Source of the DNA: Azolla caroliniana
Lineage: Eukaryota; Plantae; Polypodiophyta
NCBI GenBank assembly: GCA_043228905.1
Contig: JBHGNT010000008.1
Coordinates: 8,494,001 to 8,558,000, forward strand
Direction of reading: 5' to 3'
DNA: 64,000 bases
Shown here one piece after another: positions 3,801 through 58,365 of this stretch. Within the stretch, counting starts at the first letter, position 1. The number at the start of each line of letters is the position of its first letter. The position numbers and the translations under genes were made by a program. A model generated the notes under the pieces. That model was not told the origin of the DNA. It was given only the letters and a program-made list of their open reading frames with translations, and did not search any database.

Positions 3801-4458
3801 TGTCGTGCCTTTTGGCGCCAGATCGTTGTGGGAGTCGGGTGGGAACCGCTGAGGTTTTGGACTAGGAGGAGGAAGAATTTGAGATGAGTCTAGTTATGAA
3901 TGTGAATAGATTGTACGAAAGAGATAGAAATTCCTAAATCCCATGAATATAGTGAATTAGTTTAACTTGATATTTAAAATCAAAGTAATAAATTGAAATA
4001 GTTTAGAATAGATTAGAGTAGATTGAGAAAAGAGATCAAAACTTGTGAATTCCACAAGTATTATATTAATCAATATTTAGGTCATAATAAAAAAAAACGA
4101 AGAATCCATAATCTCAATACATCTTTCTCTTCCCTTCATATAGTGACAAAAGACGTTAAGTATGGCTTCCCACATGGAAAGCATCATGCTTTTTCTGAAG
4201 TGCATGAATAGCTTTTCCTATCATGCTTTTCTTCTAATTATAGTGTTCATGCATGCTAGGTGTGCATGAGTAGCTTTTTCTATAAAGCTTTTTCTTTTAC
4301 TAAAGTTTTTTCCTAGAAAATATGCGTGAAATAACCTTTGTAAGTGGGACATCTACTTTTTTATCACCCATGATGTGTTAATATAATGGTAAGGCTTCAA
4401 TTTATTAATATGGAGGTATAGGGTTTGAATCTTGTAGTGTACGAAATACACTACAACA
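3801..4458 (-). mobile_element. Solo LTR of the Trp-primed Gypsy group (family S)
   Basis: TGTCGTG...CTACAACA termini; homologous to 4502 and 41287 copies; removing it plus 4 bp restores host codons V-D-A-S-D-V-A-I. Confidence 0.85.
4379..4435 (+). promoter_or_regulatory. tRNA-like Pol III A/B-box module inside solo LTR
   Basis: TAATATAATGG at 4379, AGGT, GGTTTGAATCT at 4422 (43-nt spacing). Confidence 0.6.
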
Positions 4459-9307: not shown

Positions 9308-9934
9308 TGTCGTGGAGAAAACCACGAACTGGCCCTTATACGTAGGCACAAGTTTTGTTGTAATATATATATTTAGGTACAAGTCGGCAGATGTGAATAT
9401 CCTAGGTAGCATGCATTGGTTAGGTAGAAAATCGAGGCGAATCTATGTCCGAAAGGATAGAGAGTAAAGATGATGTGACGGGTTGTGACGGCCTCCCTCC
9501 TTGGGCTATAAAAGAGACGGAGAGGAATTGTAATGGGGATCGCGGTTGTCAAGGACAAAGTGCTGTTGGATTGGGACAGAGCTCTTCTCCTCTGTCTCGC
9601 TCTCTGTGTTTGTGCTGTGCAGGTTTTCGGGAGGTTGACTCTGCTCCCCGGAACGCTCGAATGCTTCCGGCAGAGTCTCCATCTCACGTCAGTGTGCGTG
9701 TAGGCGTCAATGCTTGTCACTCACCGGCCCGCCGGTTGTAACCCCTTTCATCTGATATATATATATAAACATACACGCATTCATCTTGTTCCAATGGGTT
9801 GCGGTTTCTGTGTATTTGTGTGAGTGCGAAGCACGGTCGTTGTTTTTCTCGCTCCCGTCCTGCTCTCTTGCTCCTCAGTCCAAGACCCCCATGGTCCCGC
9901 CTTGTTCTACATGCACGCACGTAAGAACGTGACA
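9308..9934 (+). repeat. 5' LTR of A
   Basis: TGTCGTG...CGTGACA; matches 15381-15876 apart from indels; TATAAAAG near 9508. Confidence 0.9.
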
Positions 9935-9938
9935 TATT

Positions 9939-9956
9939 TGGTGAACTTGACATGAA
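9939..9956 (+). promoter_or_regulatory. PBS, tRNA-Trp
   Basis: TGGTGAACTTGACATGAA vs TGGTGAACCCGACGTGAA (complement of the plant tRNA-Trp 3' end). Confidence 0.85.
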
Positions 9957-9978
9957 TAGGCGGTAGAGGAATAAGAAG

Positions 9979-12070
9979 ATGAGGGGATCGGAGCTTGCAG
10001 AAGCCATGGCTTCAGCTGTGGATCAGATAGTGAGTGCACGCAAAGGCGCAGGCGCCCTCGATAGGGCCATTGAAGCAATCGTCGACACGATAGGCCGGTT
10101 TGGTGGAAAGGATGCCACGAGCTATTTGGAGGCCTACCAAGCCGAAATGGTGATGAGGGACATTCCGAAGGACAGGCGACTGGCCGGATTCCCTTGGGCG
10201 GCAATGCCGAGCATCCATGCCGAGGTGCTCGAGGTACGGACCTGGGAAGAGTTTGAAGGTCGGCTCCTTGAGAAATACGGGCTTGATGACGCGCTTCGGC
10301 TATCAAAGCAGGACTTCATGGAATGGGTGGAGACCCCCGAAAAAGGGAGAAACACGTCGGTGCTCCTGTAGGAGTTTGAAGAACGCTTCACGCGTCTTTC
10401 GGTGCTGGACCGGACCGTACTGGACACAAGTCGTGTCCTATTGTTTGTTAAATCGGTGGACATGAGGGACCGGGAGCAAGTGGGCCTCCTGCTGGAGACC
10501 GACGACGGGTTGACGGCCGATTGGGCCGTGGTGAAGAGAGTCTGCGGCCGTTTCAACAAATGATGAGTTTGGGTTGATAAAGGCTCAACGGGAGCAGGCT
10601 CTGTTGTGGCAAGGAAGCTTGAGGTAGCCCCACCGGCGCAAAGGGAGGAGACCCGAGACTGGCTCGAGGCCGGCTCGACTTCGACCGGCGTGGTCAAAGG
10701 CCCGTCTGGAGGAGCGGCTCTGGAGGAGCTGACTCAGATGGTGAGGGACCTCCAGATTGCACAGGCACAGAGGGACGGCGGCGAACTAGCCCGTGACTGA
10801 AGGCATCCGGCTGGGCATCAGTGCTTGTGGTGCGATGCGGTCGGCCACGCCCGAAAGGACTACGGCGAATTCGTCGAAGCGATAAGGGCCGACGTGGTGT
10901 ACATGTGGAACGGGTGGGTACACGCTAGCGAAACCCGAGGGGCCCTAGATCTGAAGGTCGGACGAGGGGGAATGAAACGACAGATGGAGGAAGCGGCGGC
11001 TCGCCATGCGGAGACCATCCACTACTCGACATCGGCGGGAATCCGGGTCAGGAATGATGAAGTCCGGAGAACAAAGGACTCCGGGTTCTGGCCGTTTGTG
11101 CTGGAAGGCCTAGCCGGCGTACGACTAAGGAAAGACGGGTCCGGGATGTAACCGGGTGGAGTGACCCGGTCGAAGAGAAGACAGGTCCGGGATGTAACCG
11201 GGTGCAGTGACCCGGTCGAAGAGAAGACGGGCTTCGTGGAAGCCACGTGCCAAAACTACGAGGTTCTGGTGGAAGACAAGCGCGCGGGAAAGACCCGGGG
11301 GGGGGGGGGGGGGGGAGGGGGCATCACAACGATATGAGACCCGGTTCGGGCCGAAGCAGAATGATGTCGGTGCATCGGGCGCACGAGACAAGGTTAAGAA
11401 GGTCGGTTACCGGTTGAGCACAGAGATCAAAAGGATCCTTGACAAGAAAGTGGAGTTGTCGCTAAGGGAGGTGCTCGGTATCGCCAAGAAGGAGTTCCAC
11501 AACTCCATCGAAGACTTGGTGAAGCGGAAAAGGTTTTCGACATAGCCGGAGCTGGAGAAGCCGGTGGAGGTGCGAACGATGCACCTAGAAGACATGGCCC
11601 TGGAAGACGAGTTGGCGGAAAGCCACTACTTGAGGCTACATTGGGCTAGGGCCACTACGGAGACCCCCGTTAAGATCGGAGATGTCCAGGACCCGGTGGT
11701 GGCGTTGGTAGACCACGGTTCGGAAATCAACTTCATGTCCATGGACTTTTACAAGAAGGGCAAGTGGCCGATCAACACGATGCACGGGTGGAAAATACGA
11801 GCGGCGACGCGCGCCACGGAGGAACTACATGGAGACTGCTCGAATGTACAAGTGAAAATCAGTGATGTCGAGATCGATCAACACTTCTTTGTGCAGGAGA
11901 CATCCTCGCATCCGATGATACTCGGGGAACCGTACATCACAGAGCCACGAATGGAGACGAAGGTGTTGGACAACGGTTCGACGTACGCGCGAGTCAAGAG
12001 CCAGGACGGGCGTCACTCCGTCCAGTTTTTGACGGTACGATCGAACCATGAGCGGAATCGAGAGACCCTC
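9979..12070 (+). pseudogene. gag-protease of A
   Basis: Gag-like ORFs 9979-11151 with knuckle remnant CLWCDAVGH; protease ALVDHGSEIN. Confidence 0.85.
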
Positions 12071-12198
12071 AGCGGAAGTTATGGAAGGTGTTCGGAGAGG
12101 GCCTTAGTGAAGACCGGACGATTCCGGTATGTTTGGAAAAGCTATACGAAGTCATCGTCGACTTCGGTAGAGGACTCGAGTCGGATTAGACAGCTTGA

Positions 12199-15100
12199 GT
12201 GGACACGAAGTACAAGATTTTGGACTGGAAGGTGAGGGCAGTTGCGGCACCCTTGCCGGAGGGCAGCGAGTTACGGATGAAAGGGGTCGCGTCGGACCTA
12301 AGTTTACGAGATCCAGCCGGCATAGGAGACCGATTCACCGACATAACGCTACAAGAGCTCAAGGTAGGTGGGGGTGGTTTTCTACTACCTGCGGAGGAGG
12401 ACCGGTTTCAGGGAATGCTCGAGAGGCACGGAAAGGCCTTCGCATCCTCGTTGGAGGAAATCAGGTGCGTAGACCCGACGATTGTGGAACCAATGGTGAT
12501 CTTCACGGTACCGTATGTATCGTGGAATCTCAAACCGATTCCAGTACCGAGAGCTCACATCCCGAAGCTGATGGAGCTGCTGAAACAGAAGGTGGATATG
12601 GGCATCCTGGAACCGTCGAGTGCCCCATATTCTAATCGGTGGTTTACCATGCCCAAGAAGAACGGCACGCTACACTTCATTCAGGACCTGCAACTGGTCA
12701 ACAAGGTGACCATTCGGAACGCAGGAATCAGACCGACCATAAATGAGTTCTCGGAGGCCTTTGCCGGAAGGTCAATTTACTCGGTCGGTGATCTGTACTC
12801 GGGATACGATCAGTTTCAGCTAGCTGTGGAGAGCAGGGACATTACGACGATGCGGACTCCTCTCGGCCTAGTATGGATGTGTACCCTTCCGCAAGGGGGG
12901 ACGAACTCGGTAGCCCACATGGTGAACGCAATGAGCAAAGTGCTAAGGGATTGTATCCCAGACATCACCATGCCATTCTTAGATGACATCCCGAGCAAAG
13001 GATGCCAGGTGGAGAATAAGGGCAAGACAATCGGACCGGACGGATGCCGGAAATTCGTGGCGGACCACGTCGATGACTGCGAGAAGGTGCTGCAAAGACT
13101 AGAAGGTGCGAGGCTCACCTTCTCCGGGGAAAAATCAGCCTTCGGTCAATCGGAGATCATGGTCGTTGGACACCTATGCAGGCCATTCGGTCGGAAGTCG
13201 TCGTCGGCCAAGGTAGAGGCCATCTCTGCGATGAAGCGCAACTGCAATTCGGTCACGGAAGTCTAGAGATTCTTGGGAGCATGGGCGTTCTACCATATCT
13301 GGATCCCGCATTACACCCACATCGTAGAGCCGCTCTATGGATTGATAAATAAAGGGCGTAATTTCGACTGGAGAGAGGAGCATATGGAGTCGGTCCGGAA
13401 GATGAAAGAAGCACTTGTTGTGGCGCCGACACTCAGGAAAGCAGTCTACGGTAAAGACATTCTGATTTACGTGACCATAGACACGAGTCCAACCGGAATA
13501 AGATGGGTGATCAACTAGGAGGATGAGAATGGCACAAGGTTCCCCATCCGGTTCGGTGCGAAAGTCCTCAGTGAACGACAACGAGGGTACGCCCAGGTTA
13601 AACGCGAACTCTGGGGTATCGTTTTGGCGGTCAAGGCCGACAAAGACTATCTGATCGGGACAGAGGTGATAATTGAGACGGATTGCCTGCCGATTCTCGG
13701 TATGGTTTCTAGATGCGCAATGTCGGACCTGGCAATGCTCAGGTGGATAGCGTACATCAAGTCCCTGAATCCGGAAATATGACACATTTCTGGAAAAGGC
13801 AACACCATGGTCGACATGCTTTCGAGGGCGAGATTCGATGATGAGGACAACATGGTTTCGGAGGACAAAGAAGTCGGCGTGGATTTCTTCAAGACGGCTT
13901 AGATAACAACAAGGGAGGGGAGCACTCCGACACTTAACGAGTTCGACGAGAGCAAGTACAACGGGGAATGGCTCCAGATCGGCGGGTTCCTGAAGACAAT
14001 GACACTGGACATGGTGTGGATGAAGGCAGAGACCAACCGGGTTTGGAAAAAGCGTACCGGTTCTTCCTATGGGATGGGTGCATATGGAAGCACCTGAAGA
14101 AGAGAAATGACATTCCGCTCCGGGTTGTGGCGAAGAAAGAGGAACAGGTGGAACTGCTGACGACGTACCACAAGAGTCCCTGGGCCGGACACCGCGGGAC
14201 GTGGGCCACATTCGAGAAGCTGAAGGGGAAATACTGGTGGCTAGGACTATACCGGGACGTGCATCAGCTCATGACGACCTGTGAAAGTTGCCAGATGCAC
14301 TCCATAGTCCGACATCGGGACGGGCTTCACCCGACCTACCCTTCGACGGTCCACTTCAAGTGGATGGTGGATCTGGTGACGATGCCGATGGGGGTAGGGC
14401 AGATGAGATATGTAGTGCTGGCACGGGAGGACCTGATAAACCAGGTGGAAGACCCCGAGCCTTGCCGAACAAAACGACCGCGGCCATGTGCCGATTTCTG
14501 ATCAAAGAAGTGGTATGCCGGTACGGGTGCGTAGGAAAGATCATAGCTGACCGCGAAGAACTGGACGCAGAAGAGGCTGAAGAGCTGTTTGACCGGCTAG
14601 GGGTTAAACTCTCGCTCAGCACAGTGTACAATCCGGAGGGGAACGGGAAGGTGGAACACGGACACAGGTCGATCGTCAAAGCGTTAGTGCGGGCATGTGG
14701 AGGCCAAGTCGGAAAATGGCCGCGGCTCTTACCCTATGCGTTGTGGGCCGACCGAACTACGCATAGTTCGGTAATCGGGTTCATGTCGGCGGAGCTGATG
14801 TACGGGCAGAAGCCGGTCATGCCAATGGAGCGAACGATCTCCTCATGGGCCATAGTGGACTGGAGAGACGAGATGAGACGGGAGGAGCTGTTAGCGGCGC
14901 GGATCCGACAACTCGAGCGGAGGCCAGAGGATGTGGAAGGAGCCGCGGAAAAGCGGCGGGCCGCGAGGGTAAGGAACAAGGGACGATTCGATAGGACTCA
15001 CCGACTAAGGCCGAAGAAAATGGAGGAAGACGACTAGGTTCTGGTATATGAAAACAACCTCGATAACCAGCACAAGGTGATGCGGAAGTTCCCAAGGAGG

Positions 15101-15307
15101 TGGTTCGGGCCTTACGTGGTGACAAGCGCCAACGACAATGAGACCTACCATCTCGCGGAGCTTGACGGAAGGAGGATTGCAGTACTAGTGGCCGGGAAAA
15201 GGATCAAAGTGTTCAAAAAGCGGCACAAGGAGGAATTGGACCCGGATGACTTGGATTGTGAGGACGACCAGTTCGGGGCGAATGGCGGTTCGGAGGATGA
15301 AGGGTAG
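12199..15307 (+). pseudogene. RT-RNase H-integrase of A
   Basis: LPQG and FLDD RT motifs, DTSPTGI RNase H, GHRG/CESCQ integrase zinc finger, WFGPY module. Confidence 0.9.
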
Positions 15308-15380
15308 GCGCGGGCTGGTCTTCTTCGGCGAGAGTCTATTTAGGCGCATACCGGTGGATGCGCGGTCAGGTGGGGGAGGA

Positions 15381-15876
15381 CGTCGTGGATAAAACCGTCC
15401 CTAGGCGGAATCGGAGAATAATGTGCGCGAACTGGCCCTTATACGTAGGCACAAGTTTTGTTGTAATATATATATTTAGGTACTAGTCGGGAGATGTGAA
15501 TATCCTAGGTAGCACGCATTTGTTAGGTAGAAAATCAGGGCAAATCTCTGTCCGAAAGGAGAGAGAGTAAAGATGATGTGATGGGTTGTGACGGCCTCCC
15601 TCCTTGGGCTATAAAAGAGAGGGAGAGGAATTGTAATGGGGATCGCGGTTGTCGAGGACGAAGTTGCTGTTGGATTGGGACAAAGCTCTTCTCCTCCGTC
15701 TCTCTCTGTGTGTTTGTGTTGTGCAGGTTTTCAGGAGGCTGACTCTCCTCCGCGGAATGCCCGAGTGCTTCCGGCAGAGTTTCCATCTTGCGTCTGTGTG
15801 CGTGTGTGCGTGTAGGCGTTAGTGCTTGTCGCTCATCGGTCCACTGGTTGTAACCCCATTCTACACGCACGCGACA
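15381..15876 (+). repeat. 3' LTR of A
   Basis: (C)GTCGTGG...GCGACA, directly after the PPT. Confidence 0.9.
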
Positions 15877-16958: not shown

Positions 16959-18079
16959 TGTCGTGAAGATCCGTCACTACGTGTGGATTGCGAGGCAGAA
17001 CCATCGGGGTTTTGGACAAGAAGGATTCGAAGTTGTACTAGCTTTAGCGAGAAAGGAATTAAGATAGATTGGAAGAGAGAGAGATTAAGATAAGATAGAA
17101 TGCTTGATTTTAGATTGAGAGAGCTTAAGATTGGACCCTTGACTTTAGGTTTAAGAAACAAGATACACCATCAATTGGAGAACAAATTTTCTTCTTCTTA
17201 AATTCTTGAGTCATACCTAGCCTCCTTTTGATCTTTTTCATCGATCCTTTTATAGATGCTCCCATGTATATGATGCATGTGAGGGTACAAGACATGCATA
17301 CAATGCATGGAATTCATGTGATGCATGTTTGCCATTTGTCGCTCATGCATCACATGTCACTCAATCAAGCTCTAATATGAGAATTTATATGTAAAAGTAT
17401 AATGATAAGGAAAACATTTCTAAGGAAATGTCATAGCTTAATGGTAAGTCTATAGACTCTCAACGTGGGGGTGAAAGGATCAAGTGTTCACTTGCACTCC
17501 TTTTGAATATATATACATACATATATATACATATGTTATTATTATTATTAATGTATTCGTACAAGGTGTTTCTCCGTCTGGTCGCCGTCACCGGATGATG
17601 CCGTCGGTCGCCGGATCCATCACCGAACGCTGGACGCCGGATGCCGCCGGTTACCGTCGTTGGTCGCTGTTGCCGGAGTCGTCCAAAACCCATAGTTATA
17701 TGCATTTGGCTACATCCATTTGTTAATTCATACAACTTAATCTTTCTATGCTCCACACATAGACACAAAGATAATAGCTTTTTGCTCTGGCTTATATATG
17801 GTGGGATCTTTATTTGTGCTGTCTATGTGGGATATCACATATTTTTCTCTTCTTCTTTGGAAACTTCATACCCACATAACTTGATACTTAGATGTCCGTT
17901 TCGTACGTAGTAAAGTACATTGAGAAGCTCTTCAAGACCTTCATCTTTTTGCACCAAGATATTAAACTTATTTAAAATAGTATCTTTACTATTATTGTTT
18001 TAGATTTCGTGAGAAGAACCACACTCGATTTCGTATGATCCTTACAAGTTTCACATTATCACCGAAAATCTTCACGACA
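16959..18079 (-). repeat. 3' LTR of C
   Basis: TGTCGTGAAGAT...ATCTTCACGACA terminal inverted repeats; highly similar to 27493-28675. Confidence 0.95.
17434..17495 (+). promoter_or_regulatory. tRNA-like Pol III module in C LTR (second copy at 27968-28029)
   Basis: A box TAGCTTAATGG; degenerate B box GGATCAAGTG 43 nt later inside a GTGAA/TTCAC stem; TTTT follows at about 17501. Confidence 0.6.
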
Positions 18080-18151
18080 TCCACCCCCACCAAACTGCAC
18101 GTCCTCCGGTACATGCCAAGAAGAGAGAGTGCAAGATTTTGGAGAAGGTGA

Positions 18152-21100
18152 TTAATCAGATTCTTCCACGTCTTCATTCACATTCGCCCTATTACCTTCA
18201 TCGTCGAGGTAATCGAGGTCATGATCCTCGTCTTGTATTTTCTTGAAAATCTTTACTCTCTTTCCCGCAATGGGTATGGCCAACCTTGATCCATCTAGCT
18301 CCGCAAGGTGGTATATTGCATTGTCGTTGGCACTTATCACTATATACGGTCTGAACCATCTTCCTTGTTGTACTGTGTTGATTGTCAAGGCTGTTCTCGG
18401 AGACCAATACCCAATCTCCTTCTTCGATCTTCTTGGGACACAGTCGATGCATCTTGTCGAACCGAATTTTGTTCTTCACTCGGGTTGCCTCCAACATCTT
18501 CCGCGCTTTTTCTAGATCTTCAGGTCTCCTTTCAAGTTGCCTTATCCGTGCCGCTAATAACTCTTCTCGGCTCATCTCGTTCTCCCATGGTATCGCTACC
18601 CATGAGGTGATCGTCCTTTTGATGGGCATTAACGGCTTTTGTCCATACATAAGCTCCGTTGGCATATACCCCGTCATCGAGTTGTGTGTCGTTCTTTCAG
18701 CCCACAAGGCATAGGGAAATAGTCATGGCCAATTCCCTTCTTGACCGTTGCATGCCTGTACGATGGCTTTAACGATAGGTCTATGCCCTCGCTCGATCTT
18801 CCCATTCGTTTCTAGATTGTAGGTAGTCATGAGGGAGAGCTTCACGCCTAGTCGTTCGAAAAGCTCCGTTGCTTCATGTGCATCCAACTCCCCTCGGTCG
18901 ACGACTATCTTCCCCACACATCCGTATCGGTAGACAACCTCTTCAAGTAGAAATTTGCAAACACCTGACGTCGTCTTATTTGTCAAGGCCCGTCCTTCCA
19001 CTTGATTTGTCAAGTCTTCTCTTGCCAGAGCTAAGTACTTCATTTGTCCCACTCCCATTGGCATTGAGACCAGATCCACCATCTATTTGAAGTGTATGGT
19101 GAGCGGGTATGTCGGTCGTAGCTCATCACGATGACGTATATTCGAATGTACTTGGCATGTTTTGCATGTGGACACGAAATTGAGTACATCTTTGTACATG
19201 CTTGGCCACCAATACTTCTCCTTCAACTTCTTGAACGTCGCCCATGTTCCTCTATGACCTGCCCAGGCACTCTCGTGGAATTCAGTCATTAGCGTCACTT
19301 GCTCTTCTTTCTTCACCACCACTCGACGTGGTATTCCTGTCCTTCTTTTTGGGTGTCACGAAAGGAATCCTCCCTTCAAGAAGTATTGGTAGGCTTTCTT
19401 CCAGATTCGTAGGGCCTCCTCCTTCGTCAACGAAGCATCCGTCGTCATCGTTCTTAGGAATCTGCCAATTAGTAACCACTCTCGTTCGTACTCGTCCTTG
19501 TTGAAGTCTTGGAGGGTTAGCGTGCCCTTGTCTTCCATCAATAGTGGAGCCATCTTGAAGAAGTCGAGGGTGACGTCTTCATCTTCCGAAACCATGTCAC
19601 CTTCATTCTCAAATCTTGCCCTCGACATCATGTCAGCCATGGCGTTCTTCTTCCCTGCAATATGGCAGATCTCTGGGTTTAAAGACTTGATATAGGCGAT
19701 CCACCTTAGCATAGCTAGATCTGGTGTCGCACATCCTGAGATCATCCCGAGGATTGGGAGAGAATCTGTCTCGATTATTACTTCTGATCCGATCAGGTAG
19801 TCTTTGTCCATCTTCACTGCCGACACAATACCCCAAAGTTCTCGCTTGACTTGGGCGTATCTTTGTTGTCATTCGATGAGAACCTTTGCTCCAAACCGGA
19901 TGGCATACTACGCATTATCTTCTCCTTCTTGGTTGATGACCCACCCGATTCCGGTTGGGCTCGTATCTACAGTCACATAAATCGGCTTCCCTTTAGTATT
20001 TTCGGCCTTTCTTAATGTTGGAGCTTCAAGAAGTAGTTTCTTCAATCTTCGCATCGCGTTTGCGTGCTCGTCTCGCCATTCGAACTTCATTCTTTTCTTT
20101 AGCAATCCATATAAAGGCTCGGTGACATGGGGGTAGTGCGGAATCCAGATATGATAAAACACGCATGCTCCAAGATACCTTCGAACCTCTATTAGGTTTA
20201 TGCATTCTTCTTTCATATCTTGGATCGCGTTCACCTTGGATGGCGAAGGCTTCCGGCCGTATGCTCCGCACAAGTGACCTACCACCAAGATCTCTAGTTG
20301 CCCGAATGCGGATTTTTCTCCCAAAAATGTCAAATTCACATCTTTGAGCCTTTGGAGCACCTTCTCACAATCTTTCATATGATCCGCGATGAACTTTCTA
20401 CACCCTTCCTTATCTTTCGATTCATCTTTCTCCTCATCGAAACATCCTTTTATCGGAATATCATCCAAGAATGACATCGTGATGTTTGGGATGCAATCCT
20501 TCAAGACGTTGTTCATGGCATTCACCATATGTGCCACCGAGTTCGTTGCACCTTGAGGTAAGGTACACATCCGCACGAGCCCGATCGGAGTCCTCATGGT
20601 TGTAATGTCACGACTATCGATCGCCAATTGGAATTGGTCGTATCCAGAGTGGAGATCGCCAATGGAGTAGATGGACCGCCCCGCAAACGCTTCGGCAAAT
20701 TCGTCCACGGTCAGACCGATTCTAGCATTCCGAATTGTCACCTTGTTGACGGGTTGAAGATCTTGGATGAATCGCAATGATCCATTCTTCTTTGGCATCG
20801 TGAACCACCTTCTCCTTTAAGAGCTCAATCAGCTTCGGTAGGTGTGCTCTGGGAACCAGTATCAGTTTCAAATTCCAAGGTACGTGCGGTACCGTGAAGA
20901 TCACCATCGGCTCTATCGTCCTTGGATCAGCACATCCGATTTCTTGTGCAAAAAATGCAAAAGTCTTCCCATGTCGCGAAACATTCGCTCTTCTTCAGGG
21001 AGGAGGAAATCCTCCCTTCCAACTCGTAACTTTCCCTTCGTCTCTTCGGTGAAGATATAACCTATCATCTTCGGATCTCTTAAGCTTGGATTGTTATCGA

Positions 21101-21238
21101 CTTCCTTGATCTTTTGCCAGCTATCTTCCGGTAGCGGAACCGCAATTGGCTTGATCTTCTTATCCACTGTTTTATATTTTGTGTTGACTTCAACTTCCTC
21201 CATCAAGATGCCACGATAGTATTCATCGATGATAGCGT
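18152..21238 (-). pseudogene. RT-RNase H-integrase of C
   Basis: FIQDLQPVNKVT, LPQGATNS, FLDD, GHRGTWAT, WFRPY fragments. Confidence 0.9.
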
Positions 21239-21892
21239 TGTCGTGACGATTTTCGGCTACGGTGTGAAACCGAGTGAGATGAATAAACCAAGGATGTGCA
21301 ACATTGCACATACACTTAGCAAATAAGCCTCCTAAGGCTTAGTGGCACTTGAGCTCATACAGAGGGGTGCAAGCAAGGTTTGAACCTTGCACCTCTAAGA
21401 TACAAGATAATTGCCTTATCACTAGGACAACTATCATATAGTGTAGATTTAATTTATTTACTTTTCATATATGAATTCTAGATGAAACAACCATTAGAAA
21501 ACCATGTGCACAAAACCATGGTTCTAAACCCATGGTTTGTGCATGAAATAAGCAAAACCGTGTGCACAAAACCATGGTTTTAGCCCATGGTTTTGTGCAT
21601 GTCACAAGCATGGAAAGACCTATAAAAGCCTCTACTTGAGCTTGTGTAAGGGGCGGCTCAATATGTGATATCACCAACACCATTATCATCAATATAATTA
21701 TATTTGTCTTTATCTTCTTCATATTTTTCTACTTCTCAAATGTACAATCTTTCTTCTTCTCAAGTAAACCAATTTCATCTAATCTTACATTGATTGTCAT
21801 CTCTTCGATAATTCTGCAAACATCCTCCCCAGTCCAAGACCCCGGTGGTCGCTTGAGTAGCACAAGCACGCGGGAATCTTCGCGACATCATT

Positions 21893-21910
21893 TGGTGAAC
21901 CCGACGTGAA
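21893..21910 (+). promoter_or_regulatory. PBS, tRNA-Trp (perfect 18-mer)
   Basis: TGGTGAACCCGACGTGAA. Confidence 0.9.
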
Positions 21911-21931
21911 GAGCAGCAGGGGAGGACGAAG

Positions 21932-24037
21932 ATGGATGACAAATATCTCATGGAGGCAATGTCAAAAAGGATGATGGAGTTTCTAAGAGAAGGGAAAAGA
22001 AGAAATGAAGCCCAACAAGCTGTCGAGAGGGTAGTCAAGCAAGTGAGCTATTTCAACGGTGCCGAAGTCCAAAGTTTCCTAAAAGTCAACAATGTGGAGA
22101 TGGATTCAAGAGGTGTGGACGAAGCTATGAGGCTAGAGTACTTTTGTCGGGTGGTGTCTCAACCGATCTTCAAAGATGTAAAAGAGCTTCTAGAAGCTCA
22201 TGATTCGTGGGTGACTTTCGAGAAGGCTCTATTGGAGGAATATGGCTATGAGAGACTGAAGGGACGAGATCGACGCAACTTCGACCAATGGGTGACATCA
22301 GCGAAGACCCACCAAGGCACGACGCAAGCATTCGTAGACTTCGAGGATCATTTTTCTCAACTCTCGGAGCGGGAACAAAGATTAGTGGGGGTCGAAAAGG
22401 TCCTTATGTTCGTGAAGTCAATTGATCGAATGGAAAGGATGTCCATCTGCCTCAAACTCGAAGAAGATGATGGTGCAAATGGCCTCATCGAGGATTGGAG
22501 CAAAGTGAAAAGTGTATGCTGACTACACGATAAGGGGCGAGCGAGAATATCGACGACAACAAGACGGCCCATAAGGGACGATCGAAGAGGGGTGAGATGC
22601 AGCAACGCGCCACAAACAAAAGAAATAAAGCTTAAAAGGGAGACAAAACCGAGGCGAATGGTGATTGAGGAAGAATAGACCTCCCAACAAATGTGGTTTA
22701 ATGAAGTGGCCGATACAAAGGCTCAGGTTCGGTATGACGGTACCGTGAGAGAAAGTGCGAAACAAGTCACCTTCTTGTCTTACGAAGAAACGACGGCCAA
22801 GGAGGAGGCCGATGACTCGAGGACGGCGAATGCCACTTCGAGGGAGGATAAATGTTTCGGAACACGCATTGTGTACGAAACATCGGGTGATGAAGGTGCA
22901 AGCATGAGAAACGCTTGCATGATCGAGGGAGATAAAGTGTTTGAGTCTGAAGAGATTGAAGAGGTAGCCATGACAAACGACATCGAGTCGGAGGTGGCTA
23001 TGGACGAGTCGACAACGGATAGCCATGTCAAGACTTTATCCACACTTGTTCCAGAGACTTCGGTGGTTGCACCTGTGTGCCAACATGAGACCGGAGAGAC
23101 GGAAGGTGGTGACGGGAAGACGAAGGCCCAACACAAGGAGGAAGAAGATCGAGGAAGAAAGGATATCCCCACACCTATTCTAGAGACTTCGGCGGTTGTG
23201 CACGTGTGCCAACGTGAGACCGGAGAGACGGAATGTGTGGACGGAAAAGAGGACGACCGGAAGGGCGATGAGGAAGACAAGGTAAATGTGCATGAACGAA
23301 GGGATTCCTTCACACTGGTTCCGAAGACTTCGGCAATCGAGACCGTGTGTCAACATAAGACCAAAGATAAAGGAGGTGGCAGAGAGGAGACAATATGGCT
23401 CGAGGTGAGCATACACGGAGGGAAGGATGGGGTCGACGAGGAGGCCAAGGATGAAGCCGTGGTTGAGTTCAATGGAGAGGCGGCATGCGGGAAGGAAGGA
23501 AGAGTCGAGAACCGGTCGAACCGGAAGACGATCCGGCCAGGATTCTGGCCCGAACGATGGAAGATCCACATGGGAGCTGATCGATCGGGGGCCGACTTGG
23601 CCGAAATCGATCGGACAATCCCGATCCAAAAGGTGGCCGACTCGGCAGGAATCAATCGGTCGAGCCCGACTCGGCGAAATGTGAATGCAGACGAAGGCCA
23701 ACCGAGCCAAGAAGCGATTGGTGGAGACCGATCCGGACAAGGGCAAACCCGGCCTAATCGGAGATCGACACGAACGATCCACAATACCCAGTTGAAGACG
23801 GTGAGCGCGATGAGTGGCCAAGAGTCCAATCGAAGGACACGCGTGGTGTACGAAGGAAAAGTTGTCGGATCGACGACATCGTTCGATCGATCTACTACAA
23901 CCGACCGGGGAAGAAGGTGTGAGCGCCGGATATGGTGGATCGGGTGGCTACGGTGGTTCGGTTGGAAAGATTGGGCATACTCGAAGTGGAAGACGAAGTC
24001 AGACAAGGTCGACGAGCGTGCGGAGGAACTCGGCTGA
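21932..24037 (+). pseudogene. Gag with a long acidic, repetitive extension (about 700 codons, two in-frame stops)
   Basis: ORFs 21932-22522 (similar to A/C gag) and 22691-24037 are in the same frame; three TSxVxxVCQxxT repeats. Confidence 0.75.
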
Positions 24038-24246
24038 TCACCGTTGCCAAAGATCTCACCTCTTCACCTTTCTCGACACATACCGGAGGATGTGCGGGTT
24101 TGGTGGGGGTGGATGTCGTGACGATTTTCGGCTACGGTGTGAAACCGAGTGAAACGAATAAACCAAGGATGTGCAACATTGCACATACACTTAGCAAATA
24201 AGCCTCCTAAGGCCTAGTGGCACTTGAGTTCATACAGAGGGGTGCA

Positions 24247-24304
24247 AGCAAGGTTTGAACCTTGCACCTCTAAGATACAAGATAATTGCTTTACCACTAG
24301 GACA
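24247..24304 (-). promoter_or_regulatory. tRNA-like Pol III module in B LTR (also about 21372-21429 and, truncated, 57958-57995)
   Basis: TGTCCTAGTGG ... AGGT GCAAGG-TTCAAA-CCTTGC hairpin with B box GGTTCAAACC; 43-nt A-to-B spacing. Confidence 0.65.
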
Positions 24305-24753
24305 ACTATCATATAGTGTAAATTTTATGTATTTACTTTTCATATATGAATTATAGATGAAACAACCATTAGAAAACCATGTGCACAAAACCATGGTTCT
24401 AAACCCATGGTTTGTGCATGACATAAGCAAAACCGTGTGCACAAAACCATGGTTTTGTGCATGTCACAAGCATGGAAAGACTTATAAAAGCCTCTACTTG
24501 AGCTTGTGTAAGGGGGGGCTCAATATGTGATATCACCAACACGATTATCATCAATATAATTATATTTGTCTTTATCTTCTTCATATTTTTCTACTTCTCA
24601 AGTGTACAATCTTTCTTCTTCTCAAGTAAACCAATTTCATCTAATCTTACATTGATCGTCATCTCTTCGATAATTCTGCAAACATGCTCCCCAATCCAAG
24701 ACCCCGGTGGTCACTCGAGTAGCACACGCACACGCGAATCTTCGCGACAACGG

Positions 24754-27431
24754 ACATGTTGACGGAGTTAACTGAAATCACATGGTCGTGAAGATAGCTC
24801 AACTCCACGACGTCCTCGATTTCGCCGATGGTGTTGTTAAATGAGGCTTCTTCCATAATATGACTCACGAACTCTTCTTCTTCTATTATGTTTTCTTCTT
24901 TCAGCATCTTCTCGAATTCTTGTATCCGACGCTTGTCCTTCTTGTCGGGTAGTAATAGTTTACATGTGCCACTAGGTGTGACACATGTTGCTTCTCCTCG
25001 CAATCCACGCGCTCTTCTTTCTTGTGGGGACTTGTGATCGCTCAGACTATTTGTGCCCCATGCTTCAATAGTCCGGTCTAAAAATCCGAGGATTCGCCTC
25101 CAAGACTATCTCGATTTCTTTCATGATTAGCTCGCACCGTTAGGAATTGAACAGATCTTTGGTTGTCAAGACTCTTTATTCGAGCAAATGTCGCACCATT
25201 GTCGAACACTTTGGTTTCCATCCGAGATGATGTGATATACGGTTGTCGTAGGATGACAAGATGCGACGTCGATTCTTGCATGAAGAAGTGTTGATCCATC
25301 TCCACATCCCCGATCGCGACTTTAACATTGGGACACGCTCCGTACAAGTCCTTGCCAGTCTTTGTTGCCGTGCGAATCTTCCATCCGTGATTTTTATTGA
25401 TTGGCCATCTTCCTTTTTTGTAGAAGTCGGTTGACATGAGGTTGATCTCCAAGCCATGGTCGATCAAGGCTACCCCGGTCTCTTTCTTCTCCCCGATCTT
25501 CACCGGCGTCTCCGTTGTCGCTCGTGCCCAATGAGGTCAAGTATAGTGGTTGTCCACCATTTCTTCATCGACTTCGTCTCTTGCCATCGTTATGGCATTT
25601 GCTTTCGCTTTTAGTGGCTTCTCTTCTTCTACGTCCTATTGTTGCCTTTTTCGCTTTACAAGGTTCACGATCGTATCGTGGAACTCCTTCTTCGTAATGC
25701 CGAGTAATTCCCTCAAGGACAAGGTCACGTGGCTGTCAAGAATGCGTTCCTCGAGAATCTTCTTTAGGTCTGTCTTCTACTCTATGTACGACCTTAGCTT
25801 ATAGGTAGGCATAGTCCTCGTCTTTCGAGCGGGGTCTTCGACACCAATCTTCATGGGCCGAACCGTTTCTTCGACTCATTTGCTCGACTCCGCTTTTCGG
25901 CTAGCGTCTCCTTCCTCCATTTGTAAAGATCGACTCATTTTTTCATCTTCTTTCTTTTTCGCATTCCTTGTTTCATGTCTTTTTGATGGGCCTTGCTCTT
26001 CTATTCTTTTTCTCTTTTCTTCACAGAACACCTCGTTGTTGTCGCACATCACTTCCGTGAGTATGGTGTTGTCATCCACCAGATCCGACCACCCGGTTAT
26101 GCTTTGCACACTTCGGTCCGCAAGCTCTACCTCGTTCGATGTGACCTTCCCCATCTTCTCATACTCGAGAACGGAAGACCAAAACTTTGCTCCCACTTTC
26201 ACAGCTTCATTTTTGTCTTTCCTGACTTTTATTCCGGCCGTTGCAGCATAGTGCATTGCATCCACATGAGTTGCCTCAGCATCTTCCATAGATTTCTTCA
26301 TTCCCCCTCTTCCGAAATTCACCCGTAGGGGTCTTTGAGTTTTAGTTGAGCAGATCATGTTGTCATCTATGTATACAATATTTTGTCGGATCGCCTCTCG
26401 AAGGCTCACGCAATCCCTTCTCATGTGGTCCATGCTATCGCACCACACGCATCTAAAGGGTTCTTTTCCTTTGGGGCCCCGACGATTCATGTTGGCTAGA
26501 GTGACCATCTCGAACTTCTTCGCTAGCTCTTCGATGATGTCGTCATCAATCTTCTTTCCTTCCGGGTTGCTTTATTTGGCCGGCTCAGCTACTTTCGGTT
26601 GTCTAGTTTTCTCCGCGATAATCGACCCATTGACACAGTCTACCACAAGCCCGTTCGCTTGGGTATTATCTTCGAGGAGAGTACCCAGTTCTCATCTATC
26701 CTTTATATCTACAGCCTTTAGGAAGTACAAAGTTTTGTCCTCCTCAAGTAGCACTTGGTCTGTGGTGGGGAGACGACGAAACATTTGGTCGAATTTGTCG
26801 TACACCCTCGAGGCGCTCATCTTCTTATTCTTCTTTTCTATCCACTTCATCAAGCCAAGTCAAGTCATCCTTGACAAATCTTCGAGGAGAGTACCCAGTT
26901 CTCGTCTTTCCTCTATATCCACAGCCTTTAGGAAGTACAAAGTTTTGTCCTCCTCAAGTAGCGCACTTGGTCTGTGGCGGGGAGATGACGAAACATTTGG
27001 TCGAATTTGTCGTACACCCTCGAGGCGCTCATCTTGTTATTCTTCTTCTCTATCCACTTCATCAAGCCATGTCGAGTCATCCTTGATAAATCTTCTATCG
27101 CAAACTCCGCTAATATCTCTTTCTCGAACTCCGACAACGTTTTCTTCCCTTTTTGAAGCTCGATGACACGCCTTTGGATGTTGTTGGCGACCACTCTCTC
27201 GAAACTTGTGAGTTGCCGCGCTTCAGACACGTCCCTTTCATTCATCTCCCTTTTATATGCATCAAGGAACTTTATAATGTTCCTTCTGTCAAATTGACCC
27301 TCGAGCTCTACGACACAGTCGACGGCCTTCTCCACGCTCGCATCGTTGTCTCGAGATCTCATCATTTGTTCGACGATCAACATCATCATTTCGAAGTCTC
27401 CCGCTTGATTGCTTGAGGATGCCATCTCCAA
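24754..27431 (-). pseudogene. gag-protease and start of pol of C
   Basis: CVWCDSMDHMRRDC knuckle, ALIDHGLEIN protease ending ...SSDF*; about 211-bp tandem duplication at 26668-27090. Confidence 0.85.
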
Positions 27432-27466
27432 GTATTGGTCTCGACTTGATCCTTCCTACCGCCTCT

Positions 27467-27484
27467 TTCACGTTGGGTTCACCA
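27467..27484 (-). promoter_or_regulatory. PBS of C, tRNA-Trp
   Basis: TGGTGAACCCAACGTGAA on the minus strand, 8 nt from the LTR. Confidence 0.9.
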
Positions 27485-27492
27485 CTTAATTA

Positions 27493-28675
27493 TGTCGTGA
27501 AGATTCGTCACTGCATGCGGATCGCGAGGCGGAACCAGTGGGGTTCTGGACTGGAAGGATTCAAAGTTGTACTAGCTTTAGCGAGAAAGGAATTAAGATA
27601 GATTGGAAGAGAGAGAGATTGAGATAAGATAGAACGCTTGATTTTAGATTGAGAGAGCTTAAGATTGGACCCTTGACTTTAGGTTTAAGAAACAAGATAC
27701 ACCATCAAGTGGAGAACAAATTTTCTTCTTCTTAAATTCTTGAATCATACCTAGCCTCCTTTTGATCTTTTTCATCCATCCTTTTATAGATGCTCCCATG
27801 CATATGATGCATGTGAGGGTACAAGATATGCATACAATGCATGGAATTCATGTGATGCATGTTTATCATTTGTCGCTCGTGCATCACATGTCACTCAATC
27901 AAGCTCTAATATGAGAATTTATATGTAAAAGTATAATGATAAGGAAAACATTTCTAAGGAAATGTCATAGCTTAATGGTAAGTCTATAGACTCTCAACGT
28001 AGAGGTGAAAGGATCAAGTGTTCACTTGCACTCCTTTTGAATATATATATATATATATGTGTTTTTTTAATTAATGTATTTTTACAAGGCTTTTGTCCGT
28101 TAGTCGCGGTCGCCGAATGATGCTGGATCCCGGTCGTCGGATGCCGATCTCGCCATCACCGAATGATGCAGCCAGTCGTCGGATCGATCGCCATCACCGG
28201 ATGATGCAGCCAGTCGTCGGATCCATCGCCGGATGACCGATGCCGCCGGTTACCGTCAGTCGCCATCGCCGGATTCGTCCAAAACATATAGTTATATGCA
28301 TTTGGTTACATCCATTCGTTAAGTCATACAACTTAACCTTTCTATGCTCCACACATAGACACAAAGATAATAGCTTTTTGCTCTGCCTTATATATGGTGG
28401 GATCTTTATTTGTGCTATCTATGTGGGATATCACATATTTTTCTCTTCTTCTTTGGAAACTTCATACCCACATAACTTGATACTTAGATGTTTATTTCCT
28501 ACGTAGTAAAGTACATTCAGAATCTCTTCAAGACCTCCATCTTTTTGTATCAACATATTAAACTTATTTAAAATAGTATCTTTACTATTATTGTTTTATA
28601 TTTTGTGAGAAGAACCACACTCGATTTCGTATGTTTCTTACAAGTTTCACATTTTCGCCGAAAATCTTCACAACA
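27493..28675 (-). repeat. 5' LTR of C
   Basis: Pairs with 16959-18079; has extra copies of a GC-rich internal repeat at 28100-28270. Confidence 0.95.
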
Positions 28676-31195: not shown

Positions 31196-31650
31196 TATTA
31201 TAGATCTAGGTACTAAAGTAAGCTTAAGATAAGGATAAAGAAATGAATGATAGAAAGGAGAAAGAGAAAGAAGGGTGCCGATCCACCCGACCACCCCCGA
31301 GCGAAGGGATCGAGACGGACTCGAGCCTCGATCGGCGTCCCATACCACCGCCGTGGCGTTGAGTCGTACCTGGTGCTGGCGCGCTCGCTACAAGAGTTGA
31401 CCCACCACACGAGCAGAGCCTCGATGTAGTCAAAAGATGATCAAATGAGGGTAGCTAGGCCTCTTATTTATAGCGATACCCAAGGCCCCCAGGCAAGTTC
31501 ACACTTGACCTAATGGGTTGTCTCAATCCCGAGGATTAAAAGTAATCCTCCCCTTCTTTACACTCTCGTTTAACCCTCACACTTATCCACGTGTATAGAA
31601 TACTACGGTAAATTCTTACCACGGGATATTATATGGTCATGCCCGTAACA
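31196..31650 (-). repeat. 3' LTR of F
   Basis: Near-identical to 37759-38176 apart from a 37-bp indel. Confidence 0.95.
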
Positions 31651-37249: not shown

Positions 37250-37512
37250 TACGTAATCGAGGTATATACCTCTACGCACACGAAACATCCACAAATAAGA
37301 GATCATCGTAATACGCAATGGAGGTATTGACCTCTTACGCATACGAGACCAAACGCATATCGTTTACAACAAATCAAGGTATTAAACTCATACGCAAACG
37401 TAACATATGTTCGTGAACGTAATACGTAATTGAGGTATTAACCTCGTACGCATACGACACTCATCACATATTATTAATATGTCAAACGAGGTATTGACCT
37501 CGTGCACATATG
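37250..37512. repeat. Five spaced units with a GAGGT-N4-ACCTC hairpin core in the leader of F
   Basis: Cores at 37259, 37321, 37376, 37432, 37488. Confidence 0.8.
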
Positions 37513-37758
37513 TAAACGTTTTAGATAATCAATTAAAGACCACTACAACATCATTGACTTAATGAAAAAAATTACATATAAACTAAACACATGATTAGAT
37601 GGGAGAAGAGAGAATAGAAAGAAAAATTATGGAAAGAGTTACCGAAGTTCTTTGTTGATCGTTGTCTGGATCAAGGCCAACCGCACAACGATCGATCAGC
37701 ATCAATCAAAAGACAAATGAAAAACAAAGAAACATTAGTACAAAAATCTGATACCAAA

Positions 37759-38176
37759 TATTATAGATCTAGGTACTAAAGTAAGCTTAAGATAAGGATA
37801 AAGAAATGAAAGATAGAAAGGAGAAAGAGAAAGAAGGGTGCCGATCCACCCGACCACCCTCGAGCGAAGGGATCGAGACGGACTCGAGCCTCGATCGGCG
37901 TCCCATACCACCGCCGTGGCGTCGAGTCGTACCTGGTGCTGGCGCGCTCGCTACAAGAGTTGACCCACCACACGAGCAGAGTCTCGATGTAGTCAAAAGA
38001 TGATCAAATGAGGGTAGCTAGGCCTCTTATTTATAGCGATACCCAAGGCCCCCAGGCAAGTTCACACTTGACCTAATGGGTTGTCTCACTCTCGTTTAAC
38101 CCTCACACTTATCCACGTGTATAGAATACTACGGTAAATTCTTACCACGGGATATTATATGGTCATGCCCGTAACA
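37759..38176 (-). repeat. 5' LTR of F
   Basis: TGTTACGGG...CTATAATA on the minus strand, followed by the PBS at 37747-37756. Confidence 0.95.
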
Positions 38177-41286: not shown

Positions 41287-41937
41287 TGTCGTGCCTTTCG
41301 TCGCCGGATCGTTTGCGTGAGTCGGATGGGAACCGATGGGGTTTTGGACTAGGAGAAAGAAGAATATGAGACAATGTTAGTTAGAAAAAGATTGCAAGAA
41401 GAAGATATGAAAATCATGAACCCCACCAGTATAGTGTATTAATTGATACTTAGATTGTAAGAGAGAAATAGATGGCAAAATCGTGGATCCCACGAATATT
41501 TTATATTAATCAATCCTTACAAAAAAATCAACAACCATATACATCTTTCTCTCTTCCTTATATAGTGATGGAAGAGTCTAAGTTTATCACATGCAAGCAT
41601 CATGCTTTTTCTAACTTTAGTTTTCATGCACACTACATGTGCATGATTAGCTATCTATCACATCTTTTCTTTTAACTTGAGTGTGTACGCATGAATAACT
41701 TTTTCTATCATGCTTATCTAGAATATTTACATGGGATAAAGTTTAATATAACATTAAAACTCATAATATGCTAGTACAGTGATAAGGCTTAAAATCATTA
41801 ACATGGAGGTACAGGGTTCAAATCCTACCCTATGCATGTTACAATATTTTTAATATTTTCTTTTATTTATTTATGCGTACTACAATCAGATATATTTTTT
41901 TACATATTTTACGTAGTGTGTGAATTACACTACGACA
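41287..41937 (-). mobile_element. Solo LTR, family S
   Basis: TGTCGTG...CTACGACA; removal plus 4 bp restores host KSPWRALVLLVK. Confidence 0.88.
41772..41830 (+). promoter_or_regulatory. tRNA-like Pol III module in solo LTR
   Basis: TAGTACAGTGA at 41772, AGGT, consensus B box GGTTCAAATCC at 41815, T-run downstream. Confidence 0.7.
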
Positions 41938-42780
41938 GTGCACGCCAAGGTGATTTAATAAACCTAATGTGCCCCATACTCAAGTATTCCTTAAGTTGTT
42001 TAGCGATCTCATCCTCTTGTAATCGACTAAGTCGATAAGGTGGAATCCTCATAAGAGCAGCACCGGTGATGAGTTCAATATGATGGTCCACATTACGTTT
42101 TGGTGGTAAAGTAACAAGCAATTAATTAGGAAACAGGTCGTCAAAATCGTCTAAAATAGAGTCTAGTAATTGTCGTTCATAATGTGGTAATTGTGTGGCG
42201 TCAATATTAAAATAATAAAATTGAGACGCGGGATCAATTACACACCAATAAATTGATGAACTAGAATACTCACTTAAAGATTTATGAGACACAAGTGAAC
42301 GAGAAGGAAGTTTGGAACATTGAATAAAATGTTTACAATTATTAAGTTCAAATGTGATTGAATGATTAGCCCAATCAATGGACAAAGAAGGGTTCATCTG
42401 CGGATGATAGTTTCATAACATAAAAGTCAAGCTTTTCCATATAGGTATCTATTTGAATTGGCAGTTGACAAACAATGCCACTGATGTATTAGAAGCCTCC
42501 ATTTTCGATGTGAACTTGATAGATATGATCACTTGCGTTTATGTGGAGTTGCATTTGCTGCACCAGGTGATCATTAAGAAAATTGTGAGAACTACCGAAA
42601 TCAAACAAGAAATGTGCTTATGTTCCATTGATATACCTGAGTGCTCGGAGTAAATCATTAGGTCCAAGTAAATGTGAAGAAAAAGTGAATTCACATGAAC
42701 TTAAGTTATTGGTATGAACTTCAATAACATCAAAAGCCTCACCTTTGTGACTCGTCGATTTGTCTTGAGGAGGGGTGTTC

Positions 42781-57509: not shown

Positions 57510-57995
57510 TGTCGCGAAGATTCGCGCGTGCGTGTGCTACTCGAGCGACCACCGGGGTCTTGGATTAGGGAGGACGTTCGTAGAATTATCGAAGAGATGA
57601 CGATCAATGTAAGATTGGATGTAATTTGTTCACTTGAGAAGAAGAAAGATTGTACACTTGAGAAGTAGAAAAATATGAAGAAGATAAAGACGAATATAAT
57701 TATATTGATGATAGTGGTGTTGGTGATATCACATATTGACCCCCCTCTTTACACAAGTTCCACTAGGGTTTTTATAGCTTTCTTCATGCACAAAACCATG
57801 GGTTTAGAACCATGGTTTTGGGGACACGGTTTTTTGCTTATGACATGCACAATCCATGGGTTTAGAACCATGGTTATCTGCACATGGTTTTCTATGTTGT
57901 TTCGTCTATAATTTGTATATGAAAAGGAAATACATAAAATTTACAATATATGATAGTTGTCCTAGTGGTAAGGCAAACATCTTGTATCTTAGAGG
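57510..57995 (-). mobile_element. B-family LTR inserted in LINE ORF1 and interrupted by Copia G
   Basis: Reverse complement of 24749 to about 24267. Confidence 0.9.
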
Positions 57996-58365
57996 TGTTG
58001 GGATTACGGTCCCTCCGGATGGGATGGTCGGATGTCCGGGAATCGGGAATGAAGACCCGAATGAGGAGTACCCGGTATCGGAGCCGGATGATGAAGACCC
58101 GGTTCCGGATCCGGATGATGAAGACCCCGGTTCCGGATCCGGATGATGAAGACCCCGGCTGTGGAGCCGGATGACGAATGTACCCGGAGAGAGATCCGGA
58201 TGCGGGGACATATTTGTGAATATGTTTGCCAAGGGCCCTTGAGGCTATATTTGTAAACAGCCCGAAAGTCATATGTGTATAAATATGACTTAGGGCAAAC
58301 AGTTTTGATGTTGTTGCTCATCTTTCTGTTTTCCACTTAGAGGGAGCTAAGTGAGCAGCCGAGAA

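Follow-up and report, generated by a model that had tools for sequence, protein, structure and literature searches.

Why do the LTRs of coding Gypsy retrotransposons of Azolla caroliniana contain what looks like the internal promoter of a tRNA gene, and is that sequence maintained there? The question arises from a stretch of 64,000 nt (contig JBHGNT010000008.1, positions 8,494,001 to 8,558,000 of the forward strand; hereafter the window, numbered from its first letter), which consists of decayed LTR retrotransposons nested in one another and contains a single 100-N gap. A preliminary description had placed tRNA-like modules, each consisting of an A box and a B box, in the LTRs of three families, B, C and S. 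The boxes were confirmed at all six positions given for intact copies, and the recurrence over several families was borne out, the number of families now standing at five (B, C, S, E and F).

Elements of the window and their lineage

The elements A, B and C have their LTR ends and a single 18-nt primer site in common, the site of A being decayed (Table 1). Element C retains a broken gag and remains of RT-RNase H-integrase, B contains gag-like ORFs with no pol domain found, and A has a short U3, with the TATA about 200 nt from the LTR start. RT relatives of A, all of them liverwort or fern proteins, were found in Riccia, Calypogeia and Adiantum at 44-63%, and further relatives reached 85%; the host is on this ground probably a land plant without seeds. 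Family S is present as solo LTRs, whose orientation was taken from the relatives L003, L010 and L046, in which the same LTR end precedes the primer site. The earlier designation of S as a Trp-primed family rests on its relative L010, since the S solo LTRs of the window are without a primer site. Another S-like LTR end (4502-4698) lies 45 nt from the S solo LTR at 3801..4457, and the similarity ends near 4700.

The primer site shared by A, B and C is presumably that of tRNA-Trp. A tRNA-Trp gene was sought for comparison; 31 viral loci contained no tRNA, prokaryote genomes gave 0 matches, and a primer-site scan of viral contigs also gave 0 matches. Elements A, B and C fit the Phygy Gypsy elements, a non-chromovirus Ty3/gypsy clade (Neumann et al. 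2019, PMC6317226), and on their primer site, target and size we call them Phygy-like. In the accessible text of that paper, Phygy elements have a tRNA-Trp primer site in 81%, in agreement with our assignment, together with a 4-bp NCGN target, a size of 7.7-10 kb and no extra domain. The window elements resemble them in the NCGN target, in the size of C (about 8.2 kb) and in the lack of any extra domain found, A (6.6 kb) and B (3.5 kb) being shorter; they differ in the tRNA-like LTR module, of which the accessible text makes no mention. A chromodomain search gave no match in the frames of A or C, which are broken (one search covered 30 of 59 short frames). Among the matches listed, the related loci show NCGN at 17 of 21 5' junctions, and the five Phygy-like insertions of the window are all CG-centred, with left and right target copies differing at 1-2 positions. 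These mismatches are often at the base adjoining the LTR, and for four of the five insertions the surrounding sequence is pol of the same lineage. We also considered a 2-bp CG duplication with added bases and dropped it, because the 5' junctions end in varied letters and NCGN is already published.

Two further elements lie in the window. The Gypsy element at 31196-38176 (minus strand), which sits within a Copia element, has an unbroken 1434-aa polyprotein at 31640-35941 and a TGGTATCAGA-type primer site differing from that of A, B and C; it gave no module match. The Copia element at 57996-64000 shows a 1.2-kb inverted duplication of 99% identity and 28-bp tandem repeats around the N gap at 61930-62029, likely an assembly artefact.

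Table 1. Coordinates of elements, LTRs, modules and associated features, in window numbering unless a locus is named.
Feature	Coordinates	Strand	Remarks
Element A	9308..15876	+	6.6 kb, same lineage; LTRs 9308-9934 and 15381-15876
Element B	21239..24749	+	3.5 kb, nested inside C; LTRs 96.4% identical
Element B LTRs	5' LTR 21239-21887; 3' LTR 24114-24749	+	
Element B primer site	21893-21910		
Element C	16959..28675	-	about 8.2 kb excluding nested B; LTRs 93.4% identical
Element C LTRs	5' LTR 27493-28675; 3' LTR 16959-18079	-	
Element C primer site	27467-27484		
S-family solo LTR	41287..41938	-	element-sense TATA-like box about 41560-41566
Second S-family solo LTR	3801..4457	-	inserted in pol region of older same-lineage element
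Third B-type LTR	57510-57997	-	interrupted by Copia LTR starting about 57996
S module	41772..41824	+	A box 41772-41782, variable-loop AGGT, B box 41815-41824; 31.7 bits
Second S module	4379..4431	+	boxes 4379/4422; 27.2 bits; distal U3 absent directly after B box
C 5' LTR module	27968..28031	+	A box 27968, B box 28011; T4 28035-28038
C 3' LTR module	17434..17497	+	A box 17434, B box 17477; T4 17501-17504
B 3' LTR module	24241..24304	-	A box from 24304, B box from 24261; 33.7 bits
B 5' LTR module	21366..21429	-	boxes 21429/21386; G19 changed to A
Partial module	57958..57997	+	5' part, in third B-type LTR; Copia cut precedes B box
Target copies	3797-3800/4458-4461; 9304-9307/15877-15880; 16955-16958/28676-28679		
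Target copies	21235-21238/24750-24753; 41283-41287/41939-41942		
Weaker tRNA-like segments	27663-27715; 17129-17181	-	window
Weaker tRNA-like segments	L063:1525; L074:1654; L043:1567 and 1714; L032:2241		related loci
Flanking tRNA genes/pseudogenes	L044:1151-1223; L025:2244-2315 and 2614-2685		related loci
Flanking tRNA genes/pseudogenes	L060:1-72 and 241-313; L023:3046-3118		related loci

Structure and distribution of the module

The canonical motifs are TRGYNNARYGG for the A box and GGTTCRANYC for the B box. A generic scan for an A box, a variable-loop motif and a B box was run on both strands of the window and of at least 121 related loci (277,152 nt). The six intact modules were the top matches in the window, with 27.2-33.7 bits against 18.4 bits for the next match, the variable-loop part of the scanned motif having been informed by the finding itself. 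Two block shuffles gave no match at 22 bits or more and one match per shuffle at 20 bits or more; similar matches, which the preliminary description had considered might be common in shuffled sequence, thus fall far below the modules. ARAGORN found 0 tRNA genes in the window, a comparison of the modules with Rfam yielded no tRNA up to E 10, and a bacterial promoter scan, of no relevance here, remained at chance level.

All 17 intact copies among the matches listed keep A14 and T16 of the A box, G53, T55 and A58 of the B box, and the 43-nt spacing between the boxes (measured from T8 to position 52), and all 17 lie in U3, antisense to the element, as had been described. The boxes and their fixed spacing support the geometry of a tRNA type-2 promoter. 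The A box is perfect in C, has T10 in B and A10 in two S copies, and both window C copies deviate from the B-box consensus with A54 and G61. Read in the register of a tRNA, each module has slots for a 7-nt D loop, a 7-nt anticodon loop and a 5-nt variable loop; the acceptor, D, anticodon and T stems of a tRNA gene cloverleaf were not found. Over the 17 modules among the matches listed, the 13 tRNA invariants were 91% kept, whereas the 20 cloverleaf pairs were formed at 44% against 38.5% by chance. The S module at 41772, for example, has 12 of 13 invariants and 7 of 20 cloverleaf pairs, with a T5 run at 41847-41851. The copy reported near 57958 is indeed present, on the plus strand, but is cut by a Copia LTR before the B box. 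Element A was confirmed by both the generic and the profile scans to be without a module, and is an internal negative control from the same lineage.

A TATA-like box in element sense was found in 13 of the 17 copies among the matches listed, 133-260 nt from the module (177 nt in the B 3' LTR and 178 nt in the C 5' LTR); the four copies with none found are the distal E copies, a cut-off F contig and one S copy. Since the module lies antisense upstream of the TATA, it is directed away from the Pol II promoter; by the known layout (PMC7990762), TFIIIB would be on the enhancer side. Between module and TATA-like box there are 4-11 CATG words, as in the solo LTR at 41287..41938, where a CATG-rich block separates the two. 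CATG-rich, partly palindromic repeat blocks also lie upstream of the TATA-like box at 21498-21610 and 24370-24465; such blocks stand between TATA and module in C, E and S LTRs, occur as well in the module-less L038, L064 and L008, and are likely enhancers. Weaker tRNA-like segments in element sense were noted downstream of the TATA in C, E and L043/L032, two of them in L043 (Table 1). They are borderline (14-20 bits, best profile E 0.04), and the window copies are heavily decayed; with them, the TATA region of C and E would be flanked by two outward-facing modules.

The spread of the module was examined in loci obtained by scanning metagenome contigs for the primer site (at least 121 loci; about 340 estimated). 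Of these, 103 had an LTR-like end, and 58, with at least 450 nt on the LTR side, were scorable. A profile trained on the six window modules only, with the 58 stretches held out, detected the module in 8 of 58, at 25-43 bits and on the antisense strand, while the other 50 scored 10.2 bits or less (both among the matches listed); the best of 580 shuffles reached 20.1. The positive loci comprised relatives of C (L029, L040, L065), of B (L002, L062) and of S (L010), as well as L067 and L074, which form a new family E and each have a tandem pair of modules with 12-13 of 13 invariants. Another new family, F, has one module in the U3 of a 3' LTR (L078). Full-length LTRs with no module were found in L016, L038, L057, L064, L066, L049 and L014, the first three of which are gag sisters of C; the negatives L019, L027, L032, L046, L061, L063 and L071 are interrupted before the module position. 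The absence from A and from 50 of 58 scored stretches (among the matches listed) suggested that the module is dispensable for the lineage.

A profile of 17 modules gave 18 matches at E<0.001 in 277 kb, all of them in LTRs (among the matches listed). The SINE origin considered earlier thus found no free-standing copy among these matches; as this sample is LTR-enriched, a free SINE may still exist. A (TA)n tract follows the C module only, and by eye no target duplication was seen at the modules. Module-bearing LTRs were scattered over a gag tree, with 5 changes, a number not below that of shuffles, and the tree (56 rows, many covering less than half of the columns, with long branches meeting) gave no order of events. 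tRNA genes or pseudogenes flank 4 of 121 loci among the matches listed (Table 1), too few to suggest targeting; that of L044 is about 200 nt from the LTR start. The idea that the module serves as a landing pad was rejected: none of the 17 A boxes among the matches listed has an insertion just upstream, and one Copia lies inside a module.

With profiles that left out one family at a time, 3 of 4 B copies were recovered at E<1e-6, 5 of 5 C copies at E 1e-5 or better and 1 of 3 S copies at 1e-4, E only at E of 0.26 or more, and F not at all (among the matches listed). These results suggested that B, C and S likely share one capture and that E and F look separate, so that we infer at least two or three captures of the module. 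The preliminary description had seen, by eye, no alignment of the rest of these U3 regions; the modules of B and C proved to be homologous beyond the boxes, the B 3' LTR aligning with L065 over 74 nt at 80% (E 1e-12). L002 is 73-92% identical to B along the greater part of the TATA-to-module segment (68% in the spacer) and 44-57% elsewhere. E and C have the CATG/TATA block in common at 80-85%, with different modules, and B and C have the module in common, but not the CATG/TATA block. From such comparisons, the module appears to move between families as part of a U3 block. In addition, the gag-like ORFs next to the B-type LTR blocks differ widely among L002, L062 and window B, pointing to swapping of LTRs or U3 between families.

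Constraint and folding

Parsimony counts over the 12 B, C and S copies among the matches listed, with the topology fixed by family, gave 1.00 changes per column at the invariants as against 1.73 for the spacer (p=0.032); for the 3' flank the value was 3.09. A single indel event was counted in the modules of four families, where window means predicted 6.2 (Poisson about 0.015), and module identity ranked in the top 21, 15, 4 and 17% of 53-nt windows in the four families (both among the matches listed). A pairwise indel count (2 versus 18.7) was set aside for the count of unique events, because pairs share a reference and the pairwise figure overstates the case. Within single families, invariants and spacer did not differ significantly (p 0.33, 0.17, 0.82 and 0.17), and the aligned identity of the C module, 68-85%, was equal to that of neighbouring sequence (both among the matches listed). 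The earlier view that the lineage maintains the module was thus supported in part, by the comparison across families, where the boxes are kept better than the spacer, a contrast that is partly circular in that E and F were found by their boxes; it did not hold lineage-wide, or significantly within families. Likewise, the slower decay of boxes than of flanking LTR sequence was seen as fewer changes at invariants across B, C and S, and not within families (p 0.17-0.82). A SINE head before its capture would show the same pattern of boxes without stems.

When contigs of two runs were aligned on C, variants at 8% or more occurred in the A box only at positions 12 and 15, both of them degenerate. 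Of the sites of the module, 6 of 57 varied, compared with 9 of 26 just upstream (p=0.013); this alignment favours the reference letter, and on the C stretch run X13 gave 4 contigs and X14 gave 0. The CATG block was as invariant as the module in these contigs (3 of 54 sites varied). A54 and G61 occur in both LTRs of this C subfamily and in the contigs, where position 28013 showed no other letter at 8% or more. In each of 4 runs, contig depth over the B LTR was highest in the bin of the B box; this depth does not represent copy number. The sequence comparisons point to a constraint that is modest, extends over all 53 nt of the unit and is greatest at the boxes.

The hairpins named in the preliminary description proved to be copy-specific. 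The T-arm-like hairpin of B exists, with a 6-nt loop, but the tRNA register pairs at only 3 of 5 positions and L002 pairs at 2 of 6; the GTGAA/TTCAC stem of C is not kept in L029, L040 or L065. B and C have instead a common 8-bp stem that encloses the B box, with 90% of cells paired and two two-sided changes; 11 of 500 shuffles scored as high, and slid controls were 33-58% paired. Both two-sided changes are G-C to A-T among nine related sequences, so that stem covariation is weak, and RNAalifold chose a different register. Further, the D stem of C is displaced by a single base, and an 8-bp 5' hairpin is present in B. SINE heads may likewise refold into non-tRNA hairpins. Several B and C copies fold at z of -2 to -4 (down to -4.1) on one or both strands, and S, E, F, L002 and L062 fold weakly or no better than shuffles, except for an LTR-end hairpin of one S copy. 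Of 17 copies among the matches listed, 12 have a T4-T5 run 59-87 nt beyond the A box, such runs being common in DNA as AT-rich as this; the B 3' LTR module has no T4 within 400 nt.

Possible roles and relation to known systems

Because the boxes and their spacing are kept and the tRNA fold is not, the module is likely TFIIIC-binding, that is, a candidate site; owing to its orientation, directed away from the element, it cannot be the promoter of the element transcript. The reading that we tentatively put first, as possible rather than probable, is that a captured type-2 Pol III promoter was kept as a putative TFIIIC site that would keep the adjacent Pol II promoter open. On this reading, a U3 segment would have been captured from a tRNA gene or a SINE head, and TFIIIC would bind its boxes and load TFIIIB on the AT-rich side facing the element's enhancer. 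The resulting complex might create a nucleosome-poor patch or a silencing barrier, which could be useful to elements inserting at CG sites within other repeats; any antisense Pol III RNA of 70-100 nt would be a by-product. The divergence data would then reflect modest selection after the capture. tRNA genes act as barriers in yeasts, where A and B boxes are needed (PMC7990762); the barrier evidence that we met comes from yeasts, none from plants. A DNA-only role has no need of the 8-bp stem that B and C keep round the B box, which speaks against it. Doubtful is the wider proposal that promoters of tRNA genes were captured by Phygy elements again and again and are exchanged among families as a mobile TFIIIC barrier cassette, with a module on both sides of the TATA in some of these, and that the Pol II promoter of an element inserted at CG sites within silenced repeats would thereby stay active.

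The module might instead be a passenger relic: a SINE head or tRNA pseudogene would have fallen into U3 a few times and would now ride along with the CATG/TATA block, its boxes dating from its earlier life and decaying with the LTR. The absence of a significant box-versus-spacer difference within families agrees with such a history, as do the amplification of C with a non-consensus B box, the absence of the module from most families, the tRNA genes or pseudogenes flanking 4 of 121 loci (among the matches listed), and the occurrence of tRNA parts in "not a few" LTRs of Repbase, noted by Kojima (PMC10886601). We nevertheless regard it as rather unlikely, since the apparently separate captures (B/C/S, E and F) agree in side and orientation, indels are depleted and invariants changed less among LTR-borne homologues, the tandem E copies keep both boxes, and the 18 matches at E<0.001 in 277 kb include no free-standing copy (among the matches listed).

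A role at the RNA level, either through a short Pol III transcript, antisense and folded into two hairpins, or through hairpins in the 3' U3 of the element RNA that would serve strand transfer, packaging or protection from silencing, seems quite unlikely. The strict spacing would suit a folded RNA, B and C fold better than shuffles with their B-box stem and a family-specific 5' hairpin, and a T-run is at hand in 12 of 17 copies (among the matches listed). Against this, the module strand of S, E and F folds at z -1.3 to +0.3 and L002 and L062 are weak, the two two-sided changes follow the usual direction of methylation decay in nine related sequences, T-runs are common in AT-rich DNA, and the window B copies are without a T4 within 400 nt. 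Very improbable, in our estimation, is an annealing of the primer tRNA to the 3' U3 of the element RNA, which carries the complement of the D, variable and T loops. These loops coincide exactly with the conserved blocks, and the Ty3 3' U3 has a segment that binds the T and D arms of its primer (PMC5371799). The primer site, however, implies a T-stem 3' strand CACGT and hence U52. G52 stands instead in 15 of 17 modules, and the 5' T-stem strand expected from the primer site occurs in none (both among the matches listed), which disfavours the pairing; furthermore, the modules resemble different tRNAs although the families share one primer site. Ty3 is thus alike in having a U3 segment complementary to the D and T arms of a tRNA, and different in that the segment described here mismatches the T stem implied for the element's own primer.

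In HIV-1, a tRNA-like gene in U3/R is reported to aid strand transfer; our analysis does not rest on that case. Cassandra had been put forward as the precedent for the module. Like Ajax, it is a TRIM with the Pol III promoter of a small-RNA gene in its LTRs; that promoter is a 5S-derived type 1 promoter in a short non-coding element, and in Cassandra it starts the element transcript (PMC10886601). The precedent therefore holds in kind, and Helenus (TRIMp3; Kojima 2024, PMC10886601) is closer. Helenus elements are non-coding TRIMs of 311-1263 bp, including one plant family, from Selaginella, whose tRNA-derived LTR segments are conserved at boxes A and B and are proposed to be the element's own Pol III promoter; an insertion of a SINE into the LTR, with multiple origins, is proposed as their source. 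In both LTRs of B and of C there is likewise a tRNA-derived segment with conserved boxes A and B from which a working tRNA is unlikely. In contrast with Helenus, these segments lie in LTRs of 600-1200 bp, in coding elements of 3.5-8.2 kb with a TATA, C (about 8.2 kb) having RT, RNase H and integrase remains and B gag-like ORFs. The Helenus promoter is proposed to transcribe the element, its orientation not being given in the accessible text, whereas 17 of 17 modules among the matches listed are antisense and stand upstream of the TATA-like box where one was found. In the accessible text of PMC10886601, only short elements were followed up among the tRNA-bearing LTRs, and it is argued that the autonomous partners of Helenus must use Pol II. 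The barriers of yeasts formed by tRNA genes or TFIIIC (PMC7990762) are alike in the proposed A/B-box-dependent assembly of TFIIIC and TFIIIB beside silenced chromatin; their function has been tested, and they are tRNA genes of the host or otherwise fixed sites, whereas the module described here is carried by a mobile plant element and its role is putative.

Segments derived from tRNA were thus already known in the LTRs of short TRIMs, and what appears to be new is their antisense occurrence in long coding elements: in the accessible parts of the mainly open-access literature searched (including PMC13570524 and PMC7466625), no such module was found described for Phygy or other long coding plant elements. 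If the module were a passenger, it would be just another tRNA-like scrap inside an LTR. If it is a true TFIIIC site, a host tRNA promoter would have been turned into an anti-silencing part of a coding retrotransposon, whereas the published tRNA-bearing LTRs, as far as the accessible text describes them, are short TRIMs thought to transcribe themselves from the promoter. In that case, the sister families with and without the module would form a natural control, and A and B boxes as plant chromatin barriers would become directly testable.
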